From Patescibacteria group bacterium (GTDB taxonomy: Bacteria > Patescibacteriota > Patescibacteriia > JBDRGY01): 64,000 nucleotides of DNA. Under the pieces are notes generated by a model that was not told the DNA's origin, made no database searches, and saw only the letters and a program-made list of their open reading frames with translations. The stretch lies in NCBI GenBank assembly GCA_043817315.1, contig JBDRGY010000002.1:1046-65045 (forward strand), written 5' to 3'. The translations under genes were made by a program, and so were the position numbers. Positions 8,892-64,000 of this stretch are shown here, one piece after another (the first letter of the stretch is position 1; each line of letters opens with the position of its first letter).

Positions 8892-8894
8892 TTA

Positions 8895-11800
8895 TTAAAA
8901 CAAATTGCCGATGTTTCCTAACCAGGAGAAAGTCTGTTCTAGGTTGGAGATAACTATCTGCAAGAAAGATTCTCTGGCCCTGGAAGTTAACACTGAATAA
9001 TCGTCCGATTTAGTTTCGTTTCCAGCTTTATCTACAGCTATTGTTCTAAAATGGTAAGTTCGGGCCGGCTCCAGGTCGGGTATAATCATCAAGTGATCCT
9101 GCACCAGTTCCGGATTAATATCGGTCGAAGCTGAATATGAAGTTGACCCCAGCCCCTCCCCAAAATCAGCCGCGGTAGTGGTTGGCTCATCAGTTCTAAA
9201 GGAGACAATAATCTGAATTCTGGCTGCATCACCCGATCCCACTGTATTGGACTCATACTTGACGTGAGAAATGGTAGGCGGCGTAGTATCCTCTAAGGTT
9301 CTAAAGTTGTTTTCTACTGAAACGGCCTCGTAGCCGAATTGGTCGCGGCCCCGAACCACAAAATTGTAAATAGTTGCATCATTTAAGCCAAAAAGCAAGA
9401 CGGAGTGATCGGTTACCAGGGCAGTATTACCTTGAGTTTTGGACGGTTCATTTTCATTGTAGTATTCCACTTCCGAAGTAGTGGGCACATTGGTGGTCCA
9501 CCTAATCTCTGTTTGACCTTCGGCTTTGTTTTCCGAGGTAACATCAGACACTCGCGGAAAGGTTAGGGTAGTAAAGACATAATTATCCGAATTAAATTTA
9601 TTGCCGGAAGCATCTTCTGCATAAACTCTCAAATTATAGGTGGTTCCGTCTGCTAATCCTGTCAGTTTAATAGTGTGAGTAAAGCTAGTAGAGCCAGAGG
9701 TGTCAGTGTAGGTTAAACCATAATCCGTAGTAGTCCCATATTGAATCTGGGTAGTCGTTTCTTTATTAGTTTTCCAGGAAATTGTCGCTTCATACAACCT
9801 AATATCAGTAATCTCCATTTCCGATACCCGCGGCGCTTCTAGAGTAATAAATGAGGTTACGTCGGAATAGGCTTCATTTTCATCTCGGTCAATGGATTTT
9901 ACCTGGTAGTAATAAGTAGTTTCTGGATCTAAACCGGTAATCGTCACCGAATGATCATCAATTAAGTCAGAAGTTCCCTGTTCTCGATCATAATCTGTAG
10001 CCGAAGTTCCAAACAGGACAAAGGAGGAGGCCGGTCTTTCTGTTTTCCAGGTGACGGTGGCCGCAAAGGAATCAGGTACTATGGCCGGTCCAGCTGTAAT
10101 TTCCGGCGGAGTGGTATAACGACCGTCAGCTATTTCTTCAACTGGATCAGTGGCCGCTGAAGCGGATCCGGCTTTGTCAGCTGCTTTTACCTTGTAAAAA
10201 TATAATGTCTCAAATTCTAAATCAGTATCGATATAGGCAGTAGATTTGGTGGTGGCAATAACCTCATAGTCATTGTCCTCTTCAACCGCTCTATATATTG
10301 TATAGGTAATTTCTTCTTCCAGATCTTCTTCGACTGCATCTTTTACGATTCCAGAGGCACTGGGAGGATCAACCGAATTCCAACTGACCATTATTCGATA
10401 TTCTTTATCGGCCCGGTTGGAGACATCAAAGACTTCAGGATTAAGAGGAGCATCCGGCGGGATGGTATGAGCTTCAAAATCCACTACCGCATAATTGGCA
10501 TAATTTACATTACCGGCATCATCAGTGGCCACTACGTAGAAATTATTTATTCCCTGTTGAGTGGCTGCCGCAATCGGGCCTACTTCCGTATGAGTAGTAT
10601 AATAGACATTATCTTCGTTGGGCGGGGCATTAATACTGTAGTAATAACCTCCGACCGTAATTCCCTCGTCTACCGGCTCGGCCCAAGAGAAAGTGAAGCG
10701 ATTAACCATGTTTGATTCCGGATCAACTGCCAGATTGACCGGAGCGGAAGGGGCACCCAAGGTGGTTACTTCGTATATGGCTGATTCCCCGGTATTTCCA
10801 TCTTGGTCCACCCAGACTAATTTATAGTAATAAAGGGTGTCCGGTGATAGTCCAGTGACTAAAACCTCATGCTCGTCAACCAACTCTGAGGTGCCGGTTT
10901 CTTCTCCCAAACCTTCAGTCGTTCCGTATTGGACAAAAGAGGTAGCCGGATGAGGAATAACATTACCCAAACGATCTTGATCTGGCAAAGTCAGCCACTC
11001 GACCAAAACGGACCTGATGTAAGGAGTTACCGTCGGCTGACCGGACATAGTTGGGGCAAATTTAAATTTACCTTCCGGCTTAATACTTTCTACTGCCGAA
11101 TTACCGGAAGCGGCATTCCCACTGCCAACCGCTCTGATGAAATAACTATAGGTAATGGTGTTGTCCAAACTGGTATCTAAATAACCCAAAGTGGTAGTTG
11201 TAGCAATGTTGGTGTAATTATCTGGGGGATCAGCTACTGTGGATGGATTCTCACAATCTTCCTCACAACGATAAACTTTAAAGTTCTCGGCATTGGCCGT
11301 TTCATCCCAAGTCAGAGTGACTGAATATTTTTGAGTGGAACGATCAGAGGAGTCAGTCGCCTGCAAACTGGCTGGCGGATCTGGAGCAGTAGAAGTGAAG
11401 TCATAAGTTGTAGAGGTATAATTATCGTAATCAATGTTATTAATCACATCAGCTGCCACCAGATATAAAGTATTAGTCCCTTGTTGGGTAGCCGCTGAAA
11501 AACCAGGTAATAATCTGTTGTCAGTCTGATAGGCCGAGGTCCAACCACCGTCCGGACTGGGGGTAGTATTGCCGGCCGTATTGGTACCACAATTTTCGGC
11601 GCTAGGTAATTCATTGATTGTGAAACAATAACGTAAAATTTCATTAACATCACAAGGAGTCTGACCCAAACAGGTAGCCGGTAAGCTCCAGGAAAAGGAA
11701 AAAGTGTTATTGTTTGTGGCTGAAGTAGGCGTCGCCACTAAATTTTGCGGGGCTGTTGGCGGACTACCGGCATAGTAATAAGTAGTAGTGGCATAAGAAG

Positions 11801-14800
11801 AATAGTTGCCCGCCTCATCCAGGGCTCTAACATAGAAAATATTACCTCTGGTTCGATAAGCGGTAATTTCGGTTATGTGATTGTCATCAATGCAGGTATC
11901 AACAGCGCCGGGGGCCCCGGTTTTATAACAATAATACTCAACCCCGGAACCACCGCCATCAGTTGACACGTCCCAAGAAAAATCAAAGTCATTAGTTGAG
12001 GTGTAACCCGAGGGTGTGGCCGATACGTCAGATGGGTTAGAGGGATCAATAATATCTAATTTATAGGTAAAAGTATTAGTCGGATTAGTAGTGATATTAC
12101 CGTTATTATCGACAGTTTTTATTATCAAATAATAAGTATCGGAGGTGAGGGCAGAGGCCGCCTGGGTAGCTGCATTCCAGGAACCGTCATTGCCGGAGGC
12201 TGAATATAAATTAGTGCCGGAAACATAAGCCAGGTTAGTGGGATCGCTGGCATCATCAACCGGATCTTTGCCGCTGTCATTCCCAAAATAGACATAAAAT
12301 CCTGACAATCCAATTCCGCCGGCATTATCTGCGCCGGTCCATTCAAAGTAAGGTGTAGCGTCATTAACCCAAGTATCAGTCGCAATCTCTGTTCCCCCAT
12401 CTTCGGTATAGCCGGTTGCTGAAGTCGGGTTGGTTGGGGCCGTTCCGTCAGTATAATAACTCCAAGTTAGATCATCGACCGTCGGTGAATAAAGTTGGTC
12501 AGTCACAAAATAAATTCTAACTTGTCCATACTGAGCCACGGTAGAATCAATGCTGTAATAATTAGTGCTACTAATTTCCCGATTATTGGAAACCGCTGTC
12601 CAGTCCCCCCAATTGACGTCATCTTCATCATCAGCGCAGCCGGCATTAGAACAAGTTCTAGTTTCTATACTAATAGAAGTATTAGCCGGTTCGGTTACAT
12701 TGACCGTTAGTCCTCCGTAGCCATAAACCCCAGCCTCAAAATCCAGAATTTCTGAAGTCCAATAACCGTTACCCTCAAAACCGGTGCTGGAAGTGGCCAC
12801 CACGTAACGTTCCATTGAAGTGGTATATTCTCCGCGGAAACCCAAGACCACATTATTGCCGGTCATTACCAGGTCACCGTATTCGAAGAAAGAAGTTGTG
12901 TCTCGTGTACTCCAACTATCTTCCGAGATGTCATAAACGTACATTTCATTGCCATTGGGCTCATCACCGCGCGGGATTAAAATATTTCCCTGACCGTCCG
13001 GCACGCAGGCATCGCCGTAGCGCATATTACCCGGAGCCAATGACAGAGTACCGGCCACGTCCCAAGTTTGTGAACCGATATTAAATCGATAGATATCGTC
13101 TTGATTGTTACCACGCACCATATAAATATAACCATCTCCGCCGTTAGCAGCACAACCACCAGTATAAACAGTTCCGGGGATAGCCGAGGCAACTGTCTCC
13201 CAGATATCTGTATCAATTGTGTACTTATAAAATTCTGTGGTGTTGGCGCCTCGGGCCGTATAGATAGTATTGGTTCCATCAAACACCAAATCCGATCCGT
13301 AATTAGTTTCGTTAGCCGCCGTATTGGTGTTATCCAATCTAGTCCACTTATCATCATTTATATCGTAGCGCCAAAAGGTTCCTTCATTTTCCGTTAAGCC
13401 GCTTTCTCCCGGTAATAGATAGACTCCATCATATTGGTCACTGCTATGATTTATATATTGGGCTGACGCTCCCGGTCTAACCCGCATAGGTGCATTGGCT
13501 CTGCGCTTCCAAACATCATTGGCGATATCATAAGACCACCACTCATTGGAATTACCGCCCCTGGCCACATACAGCATATCGTTATCATTATCATAAGCCA
13601 CGGCTCCGTAGTAAAAACCATAGTTGGTATATGTATGAGGCAAGGTCGGAGTTTTCCAGCGATTTTCAGAAACGTCATAGGCCAGCAGGGCATAATCAAC
13701 CTGATAGCCCCGAATGGTGTACATGGTGTCATTAGAAGGAACGTAAACCAGGTTGCCAGCCCCTCCCTGGTATTGAGTAGTCGGCAAATCATCCAACCAT
13801 TCCCAGTTTTCATTGGCAATGTCATAACGCAGAAAACCGTTAGCTGCATAACCCCGCACTAGGTAAAAATAACCATCCAAATAATAGGCGGAGGCACCAT
13901 AATGGGTCCAGATGGGCACGCTTTTTTCATAAGACCAGGTGTTGGCCGAGACCCTATAGGAATAAAAATCGGTATCGCCATAACCTCTGGTGGCATACAG
14001 ACAGCCACCTTCGTCACTGCAATAATCACCATTGGGCACATATACTAAAGTACCGCCATAATAAACCAATTGGTCAAAACCGGTCAGCTGAGTCCAATCA
14101 TCAGCCGTTTCTCCTTCTCCGACATCGGTAATAATGTTGTATTTCCAGAACTCATTGGTGGCATCTCCCCTGGTGGCATAAATAGCATTGGCGCCATCAT
14201 AGGCCAGTTGACTACCATAATAGATTTGGGACCCTTCGAAATCACTCAGGTCTGTCCAGGTGCCGGCATTAACGTTGTAGCGGCGGAAAGTGGCGGTGTT
14301 GTTACCGCCGGTGGCAAAAACACAACCTGCCGAATCGGCACAATAGGTACCGGTTGGCACATAGACCATACTGGCGCCACCGTAAACCCCCGATCCGTAA
14401 TTGGCCAGTTGAGAATAAGTTTTATCGGCTACCGAGTAAGCGTAAAATTCCTGGCGGTTGTAACCGCGGAACATAAAAATGGTGTCATCGCCGTCATAGG
14501 ACAATCCCGATCCGTAGTAACCGCCGACATTATTGGCCACCCAGGGAATGGGTGCTTCGTTGGTCCAGATGCCGTTGCTGACTGAATCCAAAGTCAGGCT
14601 GGTCCCGGATTCAGCCGCCGTATTGATATTGGTCTCCAAAGTTCCGGTCGCTTGGAAATCGGCCTGGACCGTCCAGGTATTGGTACCGGCCGGAGAAATA
14701 CCGTTATAGGTATAAGTAAAGATAGTCTCTACATCATCCGTATTGCCGGCATCATCCTTGGCCGCCACCCGCAAATAATAAGTACTGCTGTTGGTCAGAT

Positions 14801-17800
14801 CGGTATTGACTTCGTAAGTGGTTCCGGTTTGAAAATAATCTTCGGAACTGGTCGGATCGTGAGAGGCGTTGGTAGTCCAGGACAAGTAATACCCGGCCAA
14901 GCCTGATTCGGCGTCCACAGCCCCGGTTAGTTCGAAGTAAGGATTAATATAATAGTAGGAATTGCCGGTGGTTAAAGCAGTTCCCTTGGTTGAATCAGCG
15001 TAACCGACCACAGTCGGGTTAGTCGGATTGACTGAATCCTTTTCGTAGTTAATCGTAAATTCAGAAACAGTTGGAGTATTATCGTCATCCGAATTTAAAA
15101 CCACTTTGACCTGAATATAACGATTAGCCGAAGAACCAATGGTGGTGCCGGAAACTTGAGTCCAGTCCTCCCAGGAAACTTGGTCATCAGAAGTCCTGGT
15201 GTAGTAGTCAATTGTACTACCCCCCGGCTCTAAATCAGTGGCCGTAAAACTGTTAAACGAGGTAGCGTAAGTCAGATCGTAAGTCGGAGAAATCCAACTG
15301 GCTGTGGGAATGTAATCATCAGAATCGGTAGTAAATTTATAAATGGAATTGGTATCAAACCCTCGGCGAATGTACATGGTATCAGTGGCATCATCATGAG
15401 CCATGCCAATGCCACGGACAAAATTATCAGGAGTATCACTGGCCCGGCTCCAACTATCTCCCGAGATGCTGTAGCGCCACATAGAGGTGCCGAAATTGCC
15501 GGTAATGGCGTAGATACTGTCATCTCCGTCATAGGCCAACACTGCGTTGTAATAGGAACCTTCCGGTAAGTCGGCCAATTCGGTGAAGTCATCGCCAACC
15601 GGATCGTATTCGTAAAATTGAGCCCGATAATAACCGGCTAGCATATACACTTTGTTGCCATCGTTGGTTATTCCTGCACCATAATAAGCGGTCACCGGTA
15701 GATCTTCTGTAGTCCAACTGCCATCATAATGATAAATATCGTCAGTATTGTTGCCTGCCTGAATATAGACGTCACCATCACCAAAACAGGTGATTCCCCC
15801 TCCTTCTTCCACCGCTCCCGGCATACTGCCAATACTGGACCAGCCTCCGGCATCATTGCTGATGTCATAACTGTAAAAATTAGTTGTGTTAATACCCCTG
15901 GTCAAATACAGTTCTCCATTGCCGTCATAACACAGCGAGCCGCCCCGGCTGATATTGGCTAAGCCGGTCGAGGTCATGGTGTTCCAGGCTCCATCGGCAA
16001 TATCATAACGATAGAAAATGGTGGTATTTCTACCCTGGGCCATAAACAAACACCCGGTGGCATCAGAACAACCGTCTTCACTGTTGGGCACAAAGGTGAT
16101 CAGATCGCTGTCGTAATCATTGCTGGCAATAGCCGGGGTGGCAATAGAGTCCCAAGCCCCGGCAGTAATGTCATAACGCAAGAATTCCGGCCGGTTGATT
16201 CCGGGCAGAGCATATATATAGCCGTCAAAGTAGAGGAGAGTACCGCCTTCATCAACCGTTAACCCCCCCGGCATATCCGGCGGATTATCAAGATCTTCCT
16301 GCCATTCCTGGTCAGCAATATCGTACATCATAAACTCGTCATTGTTGTAACCGGTCATGGCGTAGATATTTCCGTTGACAGCGTCAACCGCCATGGAACT
16401 GCCGTAGCTAATCCGGCCGCTGTTGCCCAGGGTGGTCGGTACATTGGCAAAATTGTAAGACCATTGAGCCAGGCTGATATCATAACGGAAAAACTCGCGA
16501 TTGTTGCTGCCCCGAAAAGCGTAGATACAACCGGTCTCACAATAAACCGGACTAGTGCCATAAGAAACCGCTGAATAGACCAAGGGGTGGCCGTTGCCGG
16601 TATAAATCTGATAAGGATAGGGAATTGAAGAAATGGTGTCGTTCCAAGTATCAGTGGCAATGTTGTATGACCAAAACCCGTCCCGGCTGTTACCTTGCGT
16701 GGCGTACAGTTTACCGTTATTGCCACTGACCAGATCCGAACCCAAACCCCAGATGTCCGGCGCATCGCTTAATTGGGTCCAAATATTATTGGCAATATCA
16801 TAGCGAAACAGAAAGGGCACGCCGTTGGTGTCGTCCGAACCGTCCTGCCCGTTGATGGCATAAATATAACCGTCATAATAAGCTAGCGAGCCTCCGTAAT
16901 AGAAACCGGTTGGCGCATCAATCAGTAATTTCCAGATATTTAACTCCGGATTATAACGAAAGAAGCCCGGTTGGTTGCCACCCACGATCATGTAGATGTA
17001 AGTACCATCAGTGGTTAAATCTGCTCCATAATTGGCGCCTTCGTAAGTATAGATGCCATAGCCACGCTGATTGGTGGGATAACCCGGAGTATCTGCACTC
17101 CAAGAACCAACTCCGCCACTGGCAATTTGCAGATCACCAGAGGTTGTGGTCATGTCTAGTTGGTTAGGATAATATTGCCCGGCTTGCCACTCGGTTTGGG
17201 AAGAGACTGTGTAGGTAGCTGCCGTAGCGTGTACCAACAGTTGCTGAATTGATCCGGCCACTAGGGTGCCAATAATCAAAATTACAAAAATCGAAATAGG
17301 AGAAAAGTGCCACCACTTCTTTTTTCTAAGAACAATTAAAGGTTTTATTTTACTTTTTTCTTTTTTACGACGTTGCTGGGCCGATTTGCTAATTGCCTTT
17401 TGCCAACTGGCATGTTTTTGGGAAATTCTACCCGGGATAGCTATTATTGTTTTTATAAATCCAGTAGTTAATCCAATAACCCGCCGCCATCTGGCCTGAT
17501 TTACCTTTTTGGTAGTTTGAATGTCTTTTTTAAGATATCTCTTGGCTTTCAACTGACGGGCTCTAACGACACTTTTAACTTGCTCTCGTTTTTTAACCGG
17601 TTTAACAAAAATACTGGCTGTCTTCTCAAAGCCAGAACGCATAAGCTGGGGAATTTCTAATTTATCTTTTAGATTGAAAGAGTATTTAAAACCCTTGGGA
17701 CGACTAAAAACTTTACCGGAGTAACTGTTTCCTCCAGTTTTTTTGGACGTTTTCCCCAGAAATCTACGTGTCCCCATAGATTTCAACTTGTTTTTTTGGT

Positions 17801-17813
17801 TTGTATTTTTCAC
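8895..17813 (-). CDS. Giant surface protein C (2972 aa): ~165-aa basic cytoplasmic N-tail, single TM anchor, Kelch-like beta-propeller repeat region, Fn3/PAP-N-like modules, conserved C-terminal tail
   Basis: ORF track. K/R-rich N-terminus, then TM FSPISIFVILIIGTLVAGSI. Many repeats of the type G..Y.....G..F.RYD...N.W..L (Kelch-like). C-terminal modules ...RARESFLQIVISNLEQTFSWLGNIGNLF are paralogous to gene B. The stop is only 3 nt from the gene B start, consistent with an operon. Confidence 0.85.
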   Translation of the reverse strand: MKNTNQKNKLKSMGTRRFLGKTSKKTGGNSYSGKVFSRPKGFKYSFNLKDKLEIPQLMRSGFEKTASIFVKPVKKREQVKSVVRARQLKAKRYLKKDIQTTKKVNQARWRRVIGLTTGFIKTIIAIPGRISQKHASWQKAISKSAQQRRKKEKSKIKPLIVLRKKKWWHFSPISIFVILIIGTLVAGSIQQLLVHATAATYTVSSQTEWQAGQYYPNQLDMTTTSGDLQIASGGVGSWSADTPGYPTNQRGYGIYTYEGANYGADLTTDGTYIYMIVGGNQPGFFRYNPELNIWKLLIDAPTGFYYGGSLAYYDGYIYAINGQDGSDDTNGVPFLFRYDIANNIWTQLSDAPDIWGLGSDLVSGNNGKLYATQGNSRDGFWSYNIATDTWNDTISSIPYPYQIYTGNGHPLVYSAVSYGTSPVYCETGCIYAFRGSNNREFFRYDISLAQWSYNFANVPTTLGNSGRISYGSSMAVDAVNGNIYAMTGYNNDEFMMYDIADQEWQEDLDNPPDMPGGLTVDEGGTLLYFDGYIYALPGINRPEFLRYDITAGAWDSIATPAIASNDYDSDLITFVPNSEDGCSDATGCLFMAQGRNTTIFYRYDIADGAWNTMTSTGLANISRGGSLCYDGNGELYLTRGINTTNFYSYDISNDAGGWSSIGSMPGAVEEGGGITCFGDGDVYIQAGNNTDDIYHYDGSWTTEDLPVTAYYGAGITNDGNKVYMLAGYYRAQFYEYDPVGDDFTELADLPEGSYYNAVLAYDGDDSIYAITGNFGTSMWRYSISGDSWSRASDTPDNFVRGIGMAHDDATDTMYIRRGFDTNSIYKFTTDSDDYIPTASWISPTYDLTYATSFNSFTATDLEPGGSTIDYYTRTSDDQVSWEDWTQVSGTTIGSSANRYIQVKVVLNSDDDNTPTVSEFTINYEKDSVNPTNPTVVGYADSTKGTALTTGNSYYYINPYFELTGAVDAESGLAGYYLSWTTNASHDPTSSEDYFQTGTTYEVNTDLTNSSTYYLRVAAKDDAGNTDDVETIFTYTYNGISPAGTNTWTVQADFQATGTLETNINTAAESGTSLTLDSVSNGIWTNEAPIPWVANNVGGYYGSGLSYDGDDTIFMFRGYNRQEFYAYSVADKTYSQLANYGSGVYGGASMVYVPTGTYCADSAGCVFATGGNNTATFRRYNVNAGTWTDLSDFEGSQIYYGSQLAYDGANAIYATRGDATNEFWKYNIITDVGEGETADDWTQLTGFDQLVYYGGTLVYVPNGDYCSDEGGCLYATRGYGDTDFYSYRVSANTWSYEKSVPIWTHYGASAYYLDGYFYLVRGYAANGFLRYDIANENWEWLDDLPTTQYQGGAGNLVYVPSNDTMYTIRGYQVDYALLAYDVSENRWKTPTLPHTYTNYGFYYGAVAYDNDNDMLYVARGGNSNEWWSYDIANDVWKRRANAPMRVRPGASAQYINHSSDQYDGVYLLPGESGLTENEGTFWRYDINDDKWTRLDNTNTAANETNYGSDLVFDGTNTIYTARGANTTEFYKYTIDTDIWETVASAIPGTVYTGGCAANGGDGYIYMVRGNNQDDIYRFNIGSQTWDVAGTLSLAPGNMRYGDACVPDGQGNILIPRGDEPNGNEMYVYDISEDSWSTRDTTSFFEYGDLVMTGNNVVLGFRGEYTTSMERYVVATSSTGFEGNGYWTSEILDFEAGVYGYGGLTVNVTEPANTSISIETRTCSNAGCADDEDDVNWGDWTAVSNNREISSTNYYSIDSTVAQYGQVRIYFVTDQLYSPTVDDLTWSYYTDGTAPTNPTSATGYTEDGGTEIATDTWVNDATPYFEWTGADNAGGIGLSGFYVYFGNDSGKDPVDDASDPTNLAYVSGTNLYSASGNDGSWNAATQAASALTSDTYYLIIKTVDNNGNITTNPTNTFTYKLDIIDPSNPSDVSATPSGYTSTNDFDFSWDVSTDGGGSGVEYYCYKTGAPGAVDTCIDDNHITEITAYRTRGNIFYVRALDEAGNYSSYATTTYYYAGSPPTAPQNLVATPTSATNNNTFSFSWSLPATCLGQTPCDVNEILRYCFTINELPSAENCGTNTAGNTTPSPDGGWTSAYQTDNRLLPGFSAATQQGTNTLYLVAADVINNIDYDNYTSTTYDFTSTAPDPPASLQATDSSDRSTQKYSVTLTWDETANAENFKVYRCEEDCENPSTVADPPDNYTNIATTTTLGYLDTSLDNTITYSYFIRAVGSGNAASGNSAVESIKPEGKFKFAPTMSGQPTVTPYIRSVLVEWLTLPDQDRLGNVIPHPATSFVQYGTTEGLGEETGTSELVDEHEVLVTGLSPDTLYYYKLVWVDQDGNTGESAIYEVTTLGAPSAPVNLAVDPESNMVNRFTFSWAEPVDEGITVGGYYYSINAPPNEDNVYYTTHTEVGPIAAATQQGINNFYVVATDDAGNVNYANYAVVDFEAHTIPPDAPLNPEVFDVSNRADKEYRIMVSWNSVDPPSASGIVKDAVEEDLEEEITYTIYRAVEEDNDYEVIATTKSTAYIDTDLEFETLYFYKVKAADKAGSASAATDPVEEIADGRYTTPPEITAGPAIVPDSFAATVTWKTERPASSFVLFGTSATDYDREQGTSDLIDDHSVTITGLDPETTYYYQVKSIDRDENEAYSDVTSFITLEAPRVSEMEITDIRLYEATISWKTNKETTTQIQYGTTTDYGLTYTDTSGSTSFTHTIKLTGLADGTTYNLRVYAEDASGNKFNSDNYVFTTLTFPRVSDVTSENKAEGQTEIRWTTNVPTTSEVEYYNENEPSKTQGNTALVTDHSVLLFGLNDATIYNFVVRGRDQFGYEAVSVENNFRTLEDTTPPTISHVKYESNTVGSGDAARIQIIVSFRTDEPTTTAADFGEGLGSTSYSASTDINPELVQDHLMIIPDLEPARTYHFRTIAVDKAGNETKSDDYSVLTSRARESFLQIVISNLEQTFSWLGNIGNLF

Positions 17814-30501: not shown

Positions 30502-30556
30502 GGGCCGTTAGCTCAGTTGGCTAGAGCGTCACTTTCGCACCCGCCTATCGGAGTGC
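30502..30556 (+). pseudogene. 5' fragment of a tRNA-Ala (CGC)-like gene (acceptor, D-arm and anticodon-loop remnant) directly upstream of the complete tRNA-Ala(CGC)
   Basis: GGGCCGTTAGCTCAGTTGGCTAGAGCGTCACTTTCGCAC is near-identical to the 5' half of the tRNA-Ala at 31767. No matching anticodon 3' stem or T-arm follows. Continues as linker CCGCCTATCGGAGTGC. Confidence 0.5.
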
Positions 30557-30628
30557 GGGCCAGTAGCTCAGTGGTAGAGCACTGCATTCGCATTGCAGGG
30601 GTCAGGGGTTCGACTCCCCTCTGGTCCA
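30557..30628 (+). tRNA. tRNA-Ala (anticodon CGC), G3:U70, no encoded CCA
   Basis: Acceptor GGGCCAG/CTGGTCC (G3:T70), D-arm GCTC-AGTGGTA-GAGC, anticodon stem CTGCA/TGCAG with loop TTCGCAT, T-arm AGGGG-TTCGACT-CCCCT, discriminator A. Confidence 0.9.
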
Positions 30629-30702
30629 TTTCCGCACGGCGGGCAGGTGGCGAAAGTCGCCCCGCTTTTTGGCGGAGCACGGCACCAAATCAAAAAAATG
30701 CC

Positions 30703-31492: not shown

Positions 31493-31707
31493 AGACTAAA
31501 AACGCTTGCTAGTATTTCTCTTTTTAAGCTATAATCTTTCTAGTAAGCGTTTTTGTTTATGGGCCGGTCCCTAGGTCCCGCACTGCGGGACCGGGATCCC
31601 GATCACCAAAAGTGACTTAGGGATAGTTCAGTTTCCGCCAAAGGCGGACCAGCCTCTGGCTGGGGCTATCATCTCTTTGCGATAAAAAGTATTATATTAA
31701 TCAATTT

Positions 31708-31891
31708 GGGCCGGTAGTTCAGTTAGCTAGAATGCCTCCATGGCATGCCTGCCCGCCAGGACCCATGGGCCGTTGGCTCAGTTGGTAGAGCGTCTCCATG
31801 GCATGGAGAAGGTCACCGGTTCGAATCCGGTCCGGTCCATAGGCTCTGGCAGGCGGGGAGGAGGTCAGGGGTTCGAGTCCCCTCCGGTCTA
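31708..31891 (+). tRNA. Outer tRNA-Ala (GGC) gene interrupted between positions 38 and 39 by a 110-nt insert (31747..31856) that contains a second complete tRNA-Ala(GGC)
   Basis: 5' exon 31708..31746: GGGCCGG TA GTTC-AGTTAGCTA-GAAT G CCTCC ATGGCAT. 3' exon 31857..31891: GGAGG AGGTC AGGGG-TTCGAGT-CCCCT CCGGTCT A, followed by TTTTTTATTT. All stems pair (G1:U72, G3:U70). Insert flanks GCCTGCCCGCC and GGCAGGCGGGG are mutually complementary. Confidence 0.5.
31767..31839 (+). tRNA. tRNA-Ala (anticodon GGC), nested inside the outer tRNA-Ala locus; no encoded CCA
   Basis: Acceptor GGGCCGT with G3:T70, D-arm GCTC-AGTTGGTA-GAGC, anticodon stem TCTCC/GGAGA with loop ATGGCAT, T-arm ACCGG-TTCGAAT-CCGGT, discriminator A. 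Confidence 0.85.
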
Positions 31892-55901: not shown

Positions 55902-55958
55902 CCGCCCAATTCCTGGAACCTACATCTTTCTAGATAAGTTACAAGAATTGGGCGGGCG
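55899..55958. repeat. Perfect 14-bp inverted repeat CGCCCGCCCAATTC ... GAATTGGGCGGGCG with 32-nt loop, overlapping the 5' end of tRNA-Gly(TCC)
   Basis: Arms at 55899-55912 and 55945-55958 are exact reverse complements. Lies immediately downstream of the minus-strand GIY-YIG gene stop (55963). Confidence 0.5.
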
Positions 55959-55962
55959 CGCC

Positions 55963-56220
55963 TTAACGAGACGCTAGATAATTTTTTAAGTTTTTCTTAA
56001 TAAATCTTCTCCCCCAGCCACTTTTATAGTATCTTTCTCTCTGGAGGGCATCTTGCTTGCTCAGGAAAGCTTCGCAATAAATTAACTTCAGTGGTAAGTG
56101 GGGCTGGGTTGAATAAGTTGACCCTTTATTGTGTTCTTTGACTCTCTTCTTTAGATTCTTGGTGAATCCTATATATAACCTGCCATTTTTCTCACTTTGT
56201 AGAATGTACACGTAATACAT
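55963..56220 (-). CDS. Small GIY-YIG nuclease-domain protein (85 aa), second copy
   Basis: MYYVYILQSEKNGRLYIGFTKNLKKRVKEHNKG; GIY-YIG motif. Confidence 0.75.
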   Translation of the reverse strand: MYYVYILQSEKNGRLYIGFTKNLKKRVKEHNKGSTYSTQPHLPLKLIYCEAFLSKQDALQRERYYKSGWGRRFIKKNLKNYLASR

Positions 56221-56247
56221 CTGGGTTTAACGAATAATTAAACCCCG

Positions 56248-56586
56248 TCATTTCTTCTTTTTAGGTTGCCAAAGATACTTATCTAAATCTACATAATAGT
56301 TACCTTCTTTTTCTTTTACCTTCACCCCTTCCTTGATTAGAAGATAGGCCTGTTCCTGGGCCGGGTGAGCTAAATTGACAATACTGATTCGACCCTCCCG
56401 ATTAATCACTCTTTGCCAAGGAACAACCTTGGACTTGGCACCCACCACTTCGTGTAAAGCCCAGCCCACCATCCGGGCGGATCGTGGTGAACCGATAAGG
56501 GCGGCAATTTGTCCGTAGGTGGCTACTTTGCCCTTGGGTACTTTTTTGACCATCTGATAAACATGTTGGTAGAAATTCTGGGCCAT
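56248..56586 (-). CDS. Alkyltransferase-like (ATL) protein: MGMT/Ogt DNA-binding domain with active-site Cys replaced by Trp
   Basis: VATYGQIAALIGSPRSARMVGWAL...VPWQRVIN; the canonical PCHRV is PWQRV here, as in ATL proteins (PWHRV). Confidence 0.7.
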   Translation of the reverse strand: MAQNFYQHVYQMVKKVPKGKVATYGQIAALIGSPRSARMVGWALHEVVGAKSKVVPWQRVINREGRISIVNLAHPAQEQAYLLIKEGVKVKEKEGNYYVDLDKYLWQPKKKK

Positions 56587-60030: not shown

Positions 60031-60284
60031 TGGTGCCGAGGGGCAGAATCGAACTGCCGACGCAAGGATTTTCAGTCCTTCGCCCCGCCCGCCGAACAAC
60101 GGCGAACTTGGAAGTAATCTACCTTTGGTGCCTGGGGCCAGAATCGGACTGGCGACGCAAGGATTTTCAGTCCTTCGCTCTACCACTGAGCTACCCAGGC
60201 TTCAAAGACAGACTACAAATTTCTTTTTCAATCAACTATATTCGCTCGGCGTTGCGGACAGGTCTACCACTGAGCTACCTCGGC
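60031..60284 (-). other. Nested tRNA-Phe locus: split outer tRNA-Phe-like copy flanking the complete tRNA-Phe
   Basis: 5' fragment 60263-60284 is GCCGAGG TA GCTCAGTGGTAGA. 3' fragment 60031-60082 is CGAAGGA CTGAAAA TCCTT GCGTC GGCAG-TTCGATT-CTGCC CCTCGGC A CCA. Acceptor strands GCCGAGG/CCTCGGC pair across the intervening complete gene. Linkers contain CCTGTCCGC and GGCGGGCGGGG. Confidence 0.5.
60126..60200 (-). tRNA. tRNA-Phe (anticodon GAA), CCA encoded
   Basis: Minus strand: GCCTGGG TA GCTC-AGTGGTA-GAGC G AAGGA CTGAAAA TCCTT GCGTC GCCAG-TCCGATT-CTGGC CCCAGGC A CCA. Confidence 0.9.
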
Positions 60285-60356: not shown

Positions 60357-62003
60357 CTATTTTGGGGAATATTTATAGATTCTAACGTAATCACCCTTAA
60401 GCAAATCTACCCGGCAAGTTCTTAAAACCGAAAAGTCGTTACTGTATAAAAGCTGTTCGGGAGTGTATTCCGGGTTAGGTTCTACGGCGTAGATTAATTC
60501 GTTTTGGGAGGTTAGTTGCTGGTACTGTTCCGCCGCCCAGACAAAGTTGGGTTCGGGATCGGGGAAACCAGCCTCCTGAAGAATGCGACCGTGTACCCCT
60601 CCGGAAATGATGAAGTGGGTCGCTCCTTGCTTTTCATATTCTTCTCGGTCTCGCACAGTTAAATTGGGAACCTTTTCGGTAATATATTTATCAGCAGGCA
60701 AATCCGGGGTATACGGTTCTACTACAAATTCAGTACCTTCCGGCATTTCCCGTAATATATATTGGCGTGCTTTCTCAATAGTGTAGTCATCCGCCCAACC
60801 GTACATGGTCCGAGCTAAGCGCCAGGCAGGGGCAGCAAATATGATTATACAGATTAAAACCGCTAACCAGCGGCGGCGACTACAATACTTAAAAATATAA
60901 TCAAGACCGGCTGCTCCCATGATAAATAAGATAGTAACCGCCGGGATCAACCATCTGGCCCAGTGCAGATTAAGAACGGACAGCAATAAAATGTAGCTGA
61001 TGACGCTGATTAACAGAAAGAAAAACTTAAATTCACGCTGGCTATATTTCTTTTTGATTATCTTGTAGCAAATAAAAAATATAATTGCTAGGGTTATCAA
61101 AAATAGAAAGGTGCCCAGTTGCCAGTGTAGAGTATCTATGGTATACCATTTTAAATTGCCCCAAAAACCAAGATCATCATGACCTCCGTGCTCCGTCCGG
61201 TTTTCAATTACCAGATGATAAAGCACACGGTGGAAATTCAAAAATAAAAACGGCCCGGTGACAAAGCTAGCCACAATAGCTGCAAAACCACTGGCCAGCC
61301 AGTTCTTGATAAACAGTTTCTTCTGACGCCACAACCAAACAAATATCATGATTAGTGGCACTACAAAAAATAGAGAAGGATATTTAGTAGCCGCGGCCAC
61401 TCCCAGGCTGGCTCCGACCCCCAGATACCAACCAATTTTGGCCGGCTGATCGATCAAGCGGAAGACAAAAAACAACATCAGCATCAAGAAAAAAGTTTGG
61501 ATAATGTCTGGTCGGATTATATGTGAGTGGTCCACCAGAAAAAATGAGGTGGCCACCAGAATTGCAGCTATAATTCCTGTTCTTTTATTCCAGTGCTTAC
61601 CGACAAAGTAGGCCAACAAAACAGTAGCCGCTCCCAAGAGAGCAGGTAACATCCGGCCGGCTGTCTGAAAAATGGTGGTAAATAACTGGTAGTTTTGGGA
61701 AGCGGCTAAGGCAGTCTCGTGAGCTTGGTTAACAAAAAAGTTAATAATTCTAAAAATAAAACCCATGCCATAGATCAGGGACTGGGCAGGAGCACCAAAC
61801 CAGCCGGGGTTTAAAGCACCGTTGGCAATATTGAGGGCCGGTTCTACGAAAAATTCTTCATCCACCAAATAAAGCCGGGGTAATCCAAAACTGATAAAGA
61901 CCAAACGCAAAATCAGGCCAATTAAAAAAATCGCCATTAGTATGATGAATATCTTGCTGGGCTTGCGAATATGTTTCATTCCTTTGGCGATTATGGTGGG
62001 CAC
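60357..62003 (-). CDS. GT-C superfamily membrane glycosyltransferase (GT39/ArnT/PMT-like), second copy
   Basis: 548 aa, about 12 TM helices plus a C-terminal soluble domain. The ORF-track start is a GTG at 62003 that overlaps the outer tRNA-Ile 3' fragment; the ATG at 61979 is an alternative start. Confidence 0.55.
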   Translation of the reverse strand: MPTIIAKGMKHIRKPSKIFIILMAIFLIGLILRLVFISFGLPRLYLVDEEFFVEPALNIANGALNPGWFGAPAQSLIYGMGFIFRIINFFVNQAHETALAASQNYQLFTTIFQTAGRMLPALLGAATVLLAYFVGKHWNKRTGIIAAILVATSFFLVDHSHIIRPDIIQTFFLMLMLFFVFRLIDQPAKIGWYLGVGASLGVAAATKYPSLFFVVPLIMIFVWLWRQKKLFIKNWLASGFAAIVASFVTGPFLFLNFHRVLYHLVIENRTEHGGHDDLGFWGNLKWYTIDTLHWQLGTFLFLITLAIIFFICYKIIKKKYSQREFKFFFLLISVISYILLLSVLNLHWARWLIPAVTILFIMGAAGLDYIFKYCSRRRWLAVLICIIIFAAPAWRLARTMYGWADDYTIEKARQYILREMPEGTEFVVEPYTPDLPADKYITEKVPNLTVRDREEYEKQGATHFIISGGVHGRILQEAGFPDPEPNFVWAAEQYQQLTSQNELIYAVEPNPEYTPEQLLYSNDFSVLRTCRVDLLKGDYVRIYKYSPK

Positions 62004-62379
62004 GGATGGATTCGAACCATCGACCTCGTCATTACCTGCCCGCCGTACGGATACACGTATTAATCATCTACTGCTGGTGGGCACGGATGGAGTTGAACCA
62101 TCGACCTCGTCATTATCAGTGACGCGCTCTAACCAACTGAGCTACGTGCCCCCCAGCAGTAGACAAAAATAAACTTCCTATTGGTTGGGTTAATGTAAAA
62201 GTTCTTTGAGGCACCGTACTCCGGCAGGCGGGTCAGTGACCCCGCAACTAGGTTCGTTACACTCGCCAGTGCGGGGCAGGCGCGCTTTCCTATTTGGTGC
62301 TTACAGTAAGTTGGTGCGCTCCCCGTCCGACTGTCTGGCGTCAGTCAAGCTGACGGGTAGCTAACTGAGCTACGTGCCC
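61994..62379 (-). other. Nested tRNA-Ile locus: split outer tRNA-Ile-like copy flanking the complete tRNA-Ile(GAT)
   Basis: 5' fragment 62358-62379 is GGGCACG TA GCTCAGTTAGCTA. 3' fragment 61994-62034 is TAA TGACG AGGTC GATGG-TTCGAAT-CCATC CGTGCCC A CCA, preceded by GGCGGGCAGG (62035-62048). The upstream linker contains CCCGCCTGCC and GCCTGCCCCGC. Confidence 0.5.
62075..62151 (-). tRNA. tRNA-Ile (anticodon GAT), CCA encoded
   Basis: Minus strand: GGGCACG TA GCTC-AGTTGGTTA-GAGC G CGTCA CTGATAA TGACG AGGTC GATGG-TTCAACT-CCATC CGTGCCC A CCA. Confidence 0.9.
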
Positions 62380-62448: not shown

Positions 62449-63096
62449 TTATAGTCCGGACTTTTCTTCCGGTCTTTCCTGTAAACTGGCGTCAAAAATA
62501 AAGCGATTGAGAATTATGTGCCACTTATCCTTTACTTGCGGCCACTCTGTTTTTATGCCGGAAAAGCGCTTAACTACCACCACCAGTAACAAGCCGATAA
62601 AGACCCAGCCCTGCCAATAAGGAAGCCTAAAGATAACCACAGCTACTGGTAGGCAGGAGAAAAACAAAATCATGGGAATGGGTGTATGTTTGGTTATTAT
62701 CCAAAAAATGATAAAAATTATGAAGCAGTAGAGAAAGGCTTTGGGCGCTAACACGGCAGCCAGGCCAAGGCCAGCTCCACCTCCTCGTCCTTCTCCCCGT
62801 TTTAAGAAAATTGACCAGTTGTGCCCGACCACCCCCAGTACACCACCAATTGCTCCTATCATCGGCCAGCCCAGATAATTGCCGATGAGCACCGGCAAGA
62901 CTCCTTTGGAAATATCCAGAGCCCCGGAAATGATCGCCGGCCCTACTCCGGCTGTCCGGGCTACATTGGACCCGCCCATTTTTCGCCAACCATGTTCGGT
63001 GACATCGATACCTTTGAATATTTTGCCGGCGAAAAAACCAAAAGACATAGCTCCCCAAAGGTAACAAGTGATCAAAAATATTATCTGCCAAATCAT
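62449..63096 (-). CDS. plsY: Glycerol-3-phosphate acyltransferase PlsY
   Basis: About 6 TM helices; IDVTEHGWRKMGGSNVARTAG corresponds to the PlsY motif (REHGSGNxGATN) and overall PlsY length and topology. Confidence 0.7.
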   Translation of the reverse strand: MIWQIIFLITCYLWGAMSFGFFAGKIFKGIDVTEHGWRKMGGSNVARTAGVGPAIISGALDISKGVLPVLIGNYLGWPMIGAIGGVLGVVGHNWSIFLKRGEGRGGGAGLGLAAVLAPKAFLYCFIIFIIFWIITKHTPIPMILFFSCLPVAVVIFRLPYWQGWVFIGLLLVVVVKRFSGIKTEWPQVKDKWHIILNRFIFDASLQERPEEKSGL

Positions 63097-63448: not shown

Positions 63449-64000
63449 TAGAAAGGAGGTGATCCATCCACAGCTTCCGCTACGGATGCCTTGTTACGAC
63501 TTCGTCCCTATTATCGATCCTACCTTCGGCCCAGTAAACTGGGACTTCGGGTATTACCGACTCTCTTGACGTGACGGGCGGTGTGTACAAAACCCGAGAA
63601 CGTATTCAACGCGCCGTGGCTGATGCGCGTTTACTAGTGATTCCAGCTTCATGAGGTCGAGTTTCAGACCTCAATCCGAACTGAGACTAGGTTTGATGGG
63701 ATTAGCTCCACGTTACCGTTTCGCAAGACCCATTGTTACTAGCCATTGTAGCACGTGTGTCGCCCAGGGCGTCAGAGGACCATGCTGATCTGACGTCATC
63801 CCTTCCTTCCTCCCCCTTAAAGGGGGCAGTCTGACATGAACAATTTAACATATCACAGGGGTTGCGCTCGTTTCCGGACTTAACCGTACATCTCACGACA
63901 CGAGCTGACGACGACCATGCAGCACCTGTCACTAGGCTCCTTTGCAGGCACATTCTCCTTTCGGTGAATTTCCTAGGATGTCAAGCCCTGGTAAGGTTTC
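63449..64000 (-). rRNA. rrs: 16S ribosomal RNA, 3' portion (continues beyond window end)
   Basis: Plus strand carries reverse complements of the universal 16S 3' motifs: AGAAAGGAGGTGATCC (anti-SD end), TACGGCTACCTTGTTACGACTT-like ACGGATGCCTTGTTACGACTT, TGACGGGCGGTGTGTACAA and GCATGGTCGTCGTCAGCTCGTG. The covered region corresponds to roughly E. coli positions 970-1542. Confidence 0.9.

Follow-up and report, generated by a model that had tools for sequence, protein, structure and literature searches.

Nested tRNA genes bounded by conserved palindromic termini in a Patescibacteria genome and across the candidate phyla radiation

We analyzed a 64,000-nt stretch of DNA from a Patescibacteria group bacterium (GenBank assembly GCA_043817315.1, contig JBDRGY010000002.1, positions 1,046 to 65,045), referred to below as the window, and in it a 386-nt locus on the minus strand (61994-62379) at which a complete tRNA-Ile gene lies inside a second tRNA-Ile gene. 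Such a nested, or 'Russian-doll', arrangement of tRNA genes is shared by a large family of loci in the candidate phyla radiation (CPR), to which this Ile locus belongs. The inner gene is an uninterrupted tRNA-Ile(GAU) with an encoded CCA (62075-62151), called by ARAGORN and scoring 75.8 bits against the Rfam tRNA model. The outer gene, hereafter the shell, was found by aligning the inner tRNA to the surrounding DNA with long gaps left free. The spliced alignment yields a complete tRNA-Ile(GAU) in four pieces, broken by three insertions of 36, 75 and 198 nt.

Exon 1 of the shell (nt 1-21; 62358-62379; GGGCACGTAGCTCAGTTAGCTA) comprises the 5' strand of the acceptor stem, the 5' strand of the D stem and the D loop, which reads AGTTAGCTA and lacks G18G19. 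It is followed by intervening sequence 1 (62322-62357, site 21/22), a 36-nt hairpin CCCGTC...GACGGG, by exon 2 (nt 22-27; 62316-62321; GAGCGC), assigned from the spliced alignment and a shuffle control, and by the 75-nt intervening sequence 2 (62241-62315, site 27/28), the 3' part of which is a hairpin CCCCGCA...TGCGGGG. Exon 3 (nt 28-35; 62233-62240; GTCACTGA) stops within the anticodon, after G34 and A35. Here, between nucleotides 35 and 36, the 198-nt intervening element 3 (62035-62232), which holds the inner gene and contains no open reading frame (ORF), is inserted without a target-site duplication. Exon 4 (nt 36-76; 61994-62034; TAATGACG...CGTGCCCACCA) supplies TAA, the 3' strand of the anticodon stem, the variable loop, the T arm, the 3' strand of the acceptor stem and ACCA; searched alone, this region gives a partial Rfam tRNA match of 27.1 bits. 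The joined exons form a 77-nt tRNA-Ile(GAU) with all stems as in the inner gene and with different D and T loops (the shell T loop is TTCGAAT).

The 198-nt element begins with a 5' arm (62214-62232) made up of CCCGCCTGCC (arm A), GGA and GTACGG, and ends with a 3' arm (62035-62050; CCGTACGGCGGGCAGG) made up of CCGTAC and GGCGGGCAGG (arm B). Inside the arms, CTACTGC (62156-62162) pairs with GCAGTAG (62068-62074) and lengthens the inner acceptor stem, so that the predicted fold consists of an outer cloverleaf, a long stem and an inner cloverleaf at its top. Folding of the whole locus gave two nested cloverleaves at -152.3 kcal/mol (z = -4.5). The original prediction, made from the sequence alone, had described a tRNA-Ile between the two halves of another, the 5' fragment 207 nt upstream and the 3' fragment 40 nt downstream, with CCGTACGGCGGGCAGG directly preceding the 3' fragment and the complementary CCCGCCTGCC-GGA-GTACGG in the upstream linker. 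All of these sequences are present on the minus strand and both spacings are correct. The nesting stands; the missing middle does not, as the outer gene is whole with three insertions, and its two mini-exons, exons 2 and 3, had been overlooked. The outer fragments do align to tRNA-Ile, both in the spliced alignment and as a partial Rfam match.

The observed spliced-alignment score for the two mini-exons was attained by 2 of 300 linker shuffles (p ~0.01). Their assignment is independently supported by the related loci L198 and L146 (handles denote loci outside the window), which carry the same 36-nt Ile 5' exon unbroken, with intervening sequences 1 and 2 absent. The ...GTCACTGA|CCCGCCTGCC junction is common to the window Ile locus and both relatives.

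The same layout is found at three other loci, in agreement with the original prediction, which had counted the Ile locus as the fourth; nested genes make up 4 of the 12 distinct tRNA genes of the window, about a third. The Phe(GAA) locus (60031-60284, minus strand) has shell exons at 60284-60263 and 60083-60031, separated by a 179-nt element (60262-60084; CCTGTCCGC...GGCGGGCGGG) at site 23/24, in the 3' strand of the D stem; the inner tRNA lies at 60200-60126, and the shell acceptor stem is GCCGAGG/CCTCGGC. The Ala(GGC) locus (31708-31891, plus strand) has shell exons at 31708-31747 and 31858-31891, a 110-nt element (31748-31857; CCTGCCCGCC...GGCAGGCGGG) at site 38/39, and an inner tRNA at 31766-31840 from which the shell differs in its stems by compensated changes; the shell anticodon stem is CCTCC/GGAGG. 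The Ala(CGC) locus (30502-30687, plus strand) consists of a 5' shell (30502-30539), an element with arms as at the Ile locus (30540-30647; CCCGCCTATC...GGCGGGCAGG), an inner tRNA (30557-30628) and a degenerate 3' shell (30648-30687) whose tRNA-likeness is gone. The Ile and Ala(GGC) shells share the D loop AGTTAGCTA without GG and form a local TAGCT/AGCTA hairpin instead.

Some minor features accompany these loci. A second "tRNA-Phe" at 60031-60103 (minus strand), called by ARAGORN and by Rfam with 29.0 bits, exactly the gathering score, is a forced cloverleaf made from arm B and the 3' shell exon. The T loop is TCCGATT in the inner tRNA-Phe (60126-60200, minus strand), where C takes the place of U55, a normally invariant base, and the canonical TTCGATT in its shell; TCCGATT seems to be a lineage trait, because a stand-alone tRNA-Phe in the related L146 shares it. 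Upstream of the Ala(GGC) locus, at 31562-31680 (plus strand), lies a 5' tRNA-Ala-like piece (GGGCCGG / TAGTTCAGTT / GGCTA) without a 3' partner, broken by four small hairpins (TCCC..GGGA twice, TCCGCCAAAGGCGGA and CCAGCCTCTGGCTGG) of types that recur in the shells of L128, L235, L153, L184, L200 and L023. By its sequence, this piece resembles what would be left of an outermost shell.

Just two copies of the 13-mer ACGGCGGGCAGGT are present in the window (62046-62034, minus strand; 30636-30648, plus strand), and it was absent from all of 100 shuffles; the identity between the Ile and Ala(CGC) loci had been recognized before, with the Ala coordinates one base off (30635-30647). Exact GGCGGGCAGG occurs three times, each time at a nested tRNA locus. 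With one mismatch allowed, 12 window matches were found against 2.7 expected, and the 10-mer arm motif was not present in shuffles. The possibility raised in the original prediction that the motif is a ubiquitous GC-rich repeat is thus discounted, exact window copies being confined to nested tRNA loci. Its description as a motif common to the Ile and Ala loci was right as far as it went, and incomplete: the motif marks the termini of a phylum-wide family.

We collected this family by two scans. A genome collection with one genome per species was searched for two T loops too close for tandem genes, and a metagenome collection for a T loop followed by GGCRGGCRGG and another T loop, which gave at least 120 loci. 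In the genome scan, the same layout appeared in Kazan and in Kerfeld-, Lipton-, Wolfe-, Portnoy- and Saccharibacteria, among others; the outer acceptor halves are complementary at 7 of 7 positions, a complete cognate tRNA lies inside, and the shells often carry one to three insertions. The inner genes of the metagenome loci listed represent at least 27 anticodons and 16 amino-acid families. When the DNA was excised in silico from the initial C of CCYGCCYGCC through the final G of GGCRGGCRGG, ARAGORN called a tRNA across the junction in 74 of the 105 loci listed, and the anticodon of the restored shell is the same as that of the inner gene in 61 of these 74. The cargo tRNA is almost always of the same isoacceptor as the interrupted gene. 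Most of the other loci either carry further hairpins or are missing the 5' shell. The scan was able to detect junctions at positions of about 22-44, and those found are concentrated at 21-24 and 33-37. The median element is 109 nt long, that is, a scaffold of ~32 nt plus a tRNA; the non-tRNA part ranges from 32 to 120 nt, and compact elements have just 4-10 nt between arm and inner gene.

An assembly artefact or a chance resemblance might be suspected, since repeated tRNA sequence can confuse assemblers and the shuffle control of the mini-exons, taken alone, reaches just p ~0.01. We give this next to no credence: the same architecture with the same non-repetitive arms recurs in over 130 contigs produced by many studies with various assemblers, no shuffle contains the 13-mer or the 10-mer motif, and the folding z-score is as low as -4.5.

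Nesting can be recursive. L158 holds a three-level tRNA-Pro(GGG) nest built of identical repeats, both of the 5' exon with its arm and of the arm with its 3' exon; three-level nests also occur in L129, where the outermost arm is degenerate, L193 and L232, and L164 has four successive 3' pieces. In L181, L190, L204, L209, L160 and L156, arm B and a 3' shell exon lie downstream of a complete tRNA, and upstream of it there is no 5' shell or arm A, only AT-rich promoter-like sequence. A separate case is L058, a tRNA-Val(GAC) locus of Saccharibacteria, which is nested and has no GC-rich arms, implying that nesting is not tied to one arm family. Here the sequence upstream of the outer gene recurs as ~40 nt in front of the inner gene, with a TTGACA-type promoter in it, and the inner gene is immediately flanked by two 13-nt stretches that are reverse complements of each other.

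The family termini, 5' CCYGCCYGCC ... GGCRGGCRGG 3', form an imperfect GC-rich palindrome in more than 120 loci and are conserved whatever the flanking exon sequence, which is itself not conserved. Four types were distinguished: CCCGCCTGCC ... GGCGGGCAGG (type 1, 47 loci listed), CCTGCCCGCC ... GGCAGGCGGG (type 2, 55 loci listed), the 3' arm GGCGGGCGGG (type 3, 13 loci listed) and the 3' arm GGCAGGCAGG (type 4, 6 loci listed). Both orientations of the termini, represented by the 47 and 55 loci, are thus about equally common. Type 2 termini are exact reverse complements of type 1, but we rejected a flip in the DNA, because the cargo orientation and the subterminal sequences are unchanged.

Variation in the arms is limited to four positions, which covary: A3:B4 is Watson-Crick in 87 of 98 unique scaffolds, and A7:B8 likewise. 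These pairs define two slipped helices of 6 bp each, A1-6:B1-6 and A5-10:B5-10, that cannot form together. Thermodynamics favors a blunt 10-bp register, which also runs on into the interior stem, although these positions then mostly form U·G or C·A, one of each. This covariation pattern fits no model we can offer and is unexplained. Three structural readings of the arms were discarded: a kink-turn, since the non-bulged strand has no unpaired GA; an H-type pseudoknot, which would need zero-length loops; and a minihelix mimic for RNase P or RNase Z, as there would be ~30 bp to the inner elbow and the RNase Z cut would fall one base off. Counting GU versus AC mismatches in the interior helix as a sign of RNA- or DNA-level constraint was abandoned, the fixed-register alignment being too noisy.

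Perfect-palindrome types are under-represented among the tRNA-carrying elements and are the rule in empty 20-nt copies. Empty copies of 20-42 nt were found outside tRNA genes at three loci. In L203, an exact 20-nt copy (CCTGCCTGCCGGCAGGCAGG, 9849-9868) lies in the 3' tail of a 936-aa UPF0182 ORF (7195-10005); the frame reads through the palindrome, and its removal would truncate the ORF after 14 more codons. L211 has a 42-nt copy (4818-4859) ~30 nt downstream of the 3' end of 16S rRNA, at the tip of a CTGAA/TTCAG hairpin, and L196 has a 34-nt copy (4913-4946).

The evidence on which of the two copies works is one-sided: shells decay and inner copies do not. Inner copies with full sequence are all intact tRNAs (6 of 121 were not called, mostly because they are cut by contig ends). 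By contrast, 41 of 115 shells are not recognized as tRNA after a single excision; 10 of these 41 have no recognizable 5' arm, and the unrecognized shells carry extra hairpins or have lost the 5' half, which is gone in at least six loci. Even among the 74 recognized shells, at least six have aberrant anticodon loops of 6 or 8 nt, and G18G19 is missing from five, as against none of the 74 inner copies. Watson-Crick stem pairs average 19.1 in shells and 20.1 in inner copies. In L169, the shell anticodon is TCA and the inner one TCG. In the Ile(UAU) family, the inner copy shows the compensated change C6U/G67A, whereas the shells show the uncompensated changes C70A and C65A. No interrupted tRNA gene without an intact inner copy was found in the window, nor in a scan of 1.7 Mb, the sensitivity of which was limited by its search for a single hairpin with a perfect 6-bp closing stem.

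For the observed architecture, with its exact boundaries, conserved arms, cognate cargo, recursion, asymmetric decay and copies outside tRNA genes, the reading we favor, and to which we give an even chance, is a DNA-level cassette with palindromic arms, mobile or homing, that carries a replacement for the tRNA gene it interrupts. The original prediction had the layout right and offered no mechanism. As the gene layout suggests, the whole unit would be transcribed from a promoter upstream of the outer gene; the 4-10 nt between arm and inner gene in compact members are too few to contain a promoter for the inner gene alone. Folding predicts that the two arms zip up together with the two outer halves, which would isolate the inner cloverleaf. 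Bacterial tRNAs mature through RNase P and 3'-end maturation enzymes, and by extension of this general route the same enzymes would release the inner tRNA, the presumed working tRNA-Ile. The outer halves would be the disrupted former gene, now serving as leader and trailer only and slowly decaying; in the window Ile shell, this decay would include the gain of two more hairpin insertions and the loss of G18G19.

Such a cassette would probably be tolerated only because its cargo replaces the broken gene, and this need would explain why the cargo is cognate. It could spread or re-insert as DNA by means of a trans-acting activity, of gene conversion between shell and cargo, or of both; re-insertion into its own cargo (or gene conversion) would explain the multi-level nests. 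Shells would be lost by recombination between the repeated halves, and the forms without a 5' shell are what recombination between repeated 5' halves would produce. Residual selection on the shell might reflect the need for its two halves to pair with each other and not with the inner gene. An origin of the cargo from mature tRNA via an RNA intermediate was rejected, as the inner Ala copies have no encoded CCA, like their shells.

Several observations weigh against the replacement-carrying cassette. The shells are not neutral: in four orthologous pairs, they differ at 23 of 301 positions (7.6%), that is, they change faster than the inner tRNAs (11 of 294, 3.7%) and more slowly than the upstream (67 of 320, 21%) and downstream (75 of 190, 39%) flanks. 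Most shells become perfect cloverleaves after removal of the element, and shell and inner copy often differ by compensated stem changes, as in the acceptor and T stems of the Phe locus; in L198, shell and inner copy are distinguished only by two acceptor base pairs that are swapped. Such changes fit selection on the shell as an RNA. The insertion sites are intron-like, being concentrated at the junction of D loop and D stem and in the anticodon loop. No transposase, integrase or homing-endonuclease genes are associated with the nested loci, and the entry of a cognate tRNA into the center of a palindrome is unexplained. The palindrome that is read through in L203 is weak evidence, because it sits in a non-conserved tail. 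Finally, both collection scans needed a canonical T loop in both copies, which biases the sample, and they covered elements with a shell and with cargo in the sense orientation.

The elements could instead be true tRNA introns of a new, protein-dependent bacterial type, an explanation that we consider possible and clearly less probable than the cassette. An endonuclease would recognize the conserved terminal helix and cut at its base, and an RNA ligase would join the exons, so that one transcript would give two tRNAs, the spliced outer one and the inner one freed by RNase P and 3' processing; after removal of the inner tRNA, the remainder would be equivalent to a split tRNA held together by the arms. 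In its full form, which we likewise regard as tentative, this would be a new CPR splicing system with a sequence-specific endonuclease and a ligase, acting on mobile introns that occur at many positions and carry a second copy of the host tRNA, and the two slipped helices would be a bistable switch presenting one splice site, then the other. Splicing best explains the exon-precise boundaries, which restore 7-nt anticodon loops and D stems in 74 of the 105 loci listed, the bias of the sites to loops and the constraint on the shells, which evolve 3-5 times more slowly than their flanks, show compensated stem changes relative to the inner copies and have canonical T loops. Termini that are conserved irrespective of the flanking exons and up to three insertions per gene, as in multi-intron archaeal tRNAs, also agree with it.

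Splicing does not explain the obligatory cognate cargo or the one-sided decay. A spliced intron would need no cognate cargo, yet every interrupted gene found has one, and damage accumulates in shells and not in inner copies. The window Ile and Ala(GGC) shells would be spliced to tRNAs without G18G19, the L169 shell would be a UGA-reading tRNA-Arg, and the palindrome copy within a coding sequence is not removed. To our knowledge, no tRNA-splicing enzyme is known in bacteria. The geometry of the archaeal signal is also missing: several registers of a bulge-helix-bulge were tried, including variants with 4-nt bulges from the slipped helices, and none of them puts both boundaries in bulges. The exon flanks are not paired with the element (A-1:B+11 is Watson-Crick in 27 of 98), and a Pfam scan of 20 ORFs of the 64-kb window found no domain of an EndA-type endonuclease or RNA ligase.

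The constraint on the shells could also mean that the shell is a selected RNA scaffold, in which the outer halves and arms form a tRNA-like clamp that assists the folding, processing or stability of the inner tRNA or recruits tRNA enzymes. Purifying selection on shells that is weaker than on inner copies, the maintained complementarity of the shell halves, and the remodelling of the Ile and Ala(GGC) shell D arms into the TAGCT/AGCTA hairpin, which would prevent pairing between the 5' shell and the 3' half of the inner gene, are all in its favor. We nevertheless think it unlikely: ordinary tRNA genes in the same genome need no scaffold, degenerate shells and forms without a 5' shell persist, and the conserved arm sequence and the copies outside tRNA genes are left unexplained.

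In search of a partner gene, 2,693 clustered ORFs from 120 metagenome loci listed were compared, and no conserved neighboring enzyme gene was enriched; the clusters near these loci are housekeeping only, e.g. CCA-adding enzyme, aminoacyl-tRNA synthetases and ribosomal proteins. Neither arm pair had a match in a viral contig collection, and as far as that collection shows a phage or viral origin was rejected. Genomic islands and prophages with tRNA genes as integration sites bring along a replacement 3' end, and integration commonly leaves a duplicated 3' tRNA segment; many of the two-T-loop matches outside CPR are probably of this scar kind or tandem genes. The nested loci resemble such islands in that the insert brings what keeps the tRNA functional and partial tRNA duplicates are left. 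They differ in that the element is 100-200 nt long, has no integrase, carries a whole gene and not a 3' segment, is nested and not flanking, and is bounded by a palindrome without a shared core or target duplication. An integrase with cargo between duplicates of one tRNA end, the mark of an integrase island, was not found. It is accordingly very improbable that the Ile locus represents the attachment-site scars of an integrase-driven island or prophage: the "island" would be only 198 nt long without an integrase gene, the 5' and 3' parts are both duplicated around a complete gene, and the boundaries are a conserved palindrome. The anatomy, together with the finding of such loci in more than 130 independent contigs, excludes integrase scars and artefacts alike.

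Like repetitive extragenic palindromic (REP) and miniature inverted-repeat transposable element (MITE)-like sequences, the cassette has terminal inverted repeats in the form of short imperfect palindromes, and many dispersed copies in both orientations, including non-tRNA sites such as the tail of a coding sequence and an rRNA spacer. It is unlike them in its overwhelming link to tRNA loop positions and in having a tRNA gene as cargo. Neither a target-site duplication nor a GTAG-type REP signature was found; the lack of a duplication is evident from the restoration of the tRNA by exact excision. No partner transposase (RAYT) was identified, no genome-wide search having been made.

Multi-intron tRNAs of Thermoproteales and split tRNAs of Nanoarchaeum equitans are processed at a bulge-helix-bulge motif by the EndA endonuclease and the RtcB ligase, and an archaeal tRNA-Trp intron encodes a C/D box guide RNA. 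Archaeal disrupted tRNA genes (reviewed in PMC4090602, PMC3978253) resemble the nested loci in that several non-canonical sites in the D arm and anticodon loop are cut by short helix-forming sequences with exon precision, as at the window loci and in 74 of 105 family members listed, and in that related intervening sequences occur in different tRNAs, which implies mobility. Like the Nanoarchaeum half-tRNAs, which pair via their leaders, the outer pieces would be joined by complementary arms once the inner tRNA is removed. In contrast to the archaeal cases, the present host is bacterial (genes in the window include a bacterial 16S rRNA, RNase Y, IF-2 and ClpP, with promoters that appear sigma-70-like by eye), both boundaries lie at the base of a single intron-internal helix with the exons outside the motif, the termini are conserved in sequence and not just in structure, the insert holds a complete cognate tRNA, and splicing is putative. 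The tRNA-Trp intron offers a parallel for a functional small RNA gene within a tRNA intervening sequence, co-transcribed with it; here, however, the cargo is a copy of the host tRNA, and most tRNA families are involved, not one gene.

Group I introns occur in tRNA genes of Patescibacteria, including one unusual site at 35/36 (PMC13011429), and thus share the phylum, the kind of host gene and the insertion site with the Ile locus. Unlike them, the present elements have a non-tRNA part (32-120 nt) too small for a group I core, and the group I model (Rfam RF00028) had no match at the gathering threshold or at E <= 10. Nor do they obey the group I end rule (U at -1, last base G): G is invariably the last base, but position -1 is occupied by A at the window Ile locus and by A, C, G or T across the family. 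Apart from tRNA, no Rfam family matched the nested loci even at E <= 10. This excluded the known small self-cleaving ribozymes, and empty 20-nt copies are too small to be ribozymes. A 17-nt hairpin CCTTTCTTTCTGAAAGG that may belong to a group I intron is located in the anticodon loop of tRNA-Leu(TAA) in two Bacteroidota genomes of Chitinophagaceae type (L043, L100).

Insertions in CPR rRNA genes have been described (PMC11270868), as have, in work cited there and judged here from that citation, the intervening sequences that RNase III excises from bacterial 23S rRNA. As far as that source shows, the latter likewise replace a loop of a structural RNA by a helix-closed insertion, a feature seen at the nested loci, and occur in reduced genomes; unlike the putative introns, they are cut out with no ligation step, leaving an rRNA that functions in pieces. 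This would not be possible for a tRNA severed within its anticodon, which makes excision of the RNase III type implausible. As a defining feature failed for each known family tested, we rate the locus as lying outside the known kinds, its mechanism being a proposal. Open-access papers and bioRxiv yielded no description of nested tRNA genes or of these arm motifs, and the cassette is apparently undescribed.

If our description is true, in well over 100 CPR loci a gene lies within a copy of itself that is broken or contains introns, and a 10+10-nt motif with phylum-wide conservation marks the borders. The replacement-carrying cassette, if true, would represent a new selfish strategy, insertion into an essential single-copy gene for which the element brings the replacement; this would make the element addictive and recursive nesting possible. 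Splicing, if true, would be the first protein-spliced tRNA intron system in Bacteria and would bear on the origin of disrupted (intron-containing, split and permuted) tRNA genes and on whether they are an archaeal and eukaryotic speciality. Either way, ARAGORN, the sole standard tRNA finder run, detects just the inner gene or reports a shell fragment as a tRNA by mistake, and CPR tRNA counts, pseudogene calls and integration-site predictions are affected. The conserved arms provide a handle for experiments and for an enzyme search by phylogenetic profiling.

The Ile locus is neighbored by genes for PlsY and a PMT-family glycosyltransferase. PlsY has an identical counterpart among NCBI/ENA proteins, from a metagenome-assembled genome of a Patescibacteria group bacterium. 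A synteny comparison via PlsY proved impossible, the next-best homologue being just 33% identical. On the minus strand, the 3' end of the 16S rRNA gene (63452-64000) is followed by plsY (62449-63096) and then by the tRNA-Ile locus; no spacer tRNA and 23S rRNA follow the 16S rRNA 3' end in the window, and the rRNA genes appear to be unlinked. Elsewhere on this strand, a long GC-rich hairpin (CCCGCCCAATTC-N33-GAATTGGGCGGG, 55905-55965) abuts the 5' end of tRNA-Gly(TCC), and a small ORF directly upstream of it (~56000-56250) is a candidate GIY-YIG-like gene, as judged by eye. Two adjoining giant ORFs of 1688 and 2972 aa occupy positions 3825-17813, also on the minus strand.

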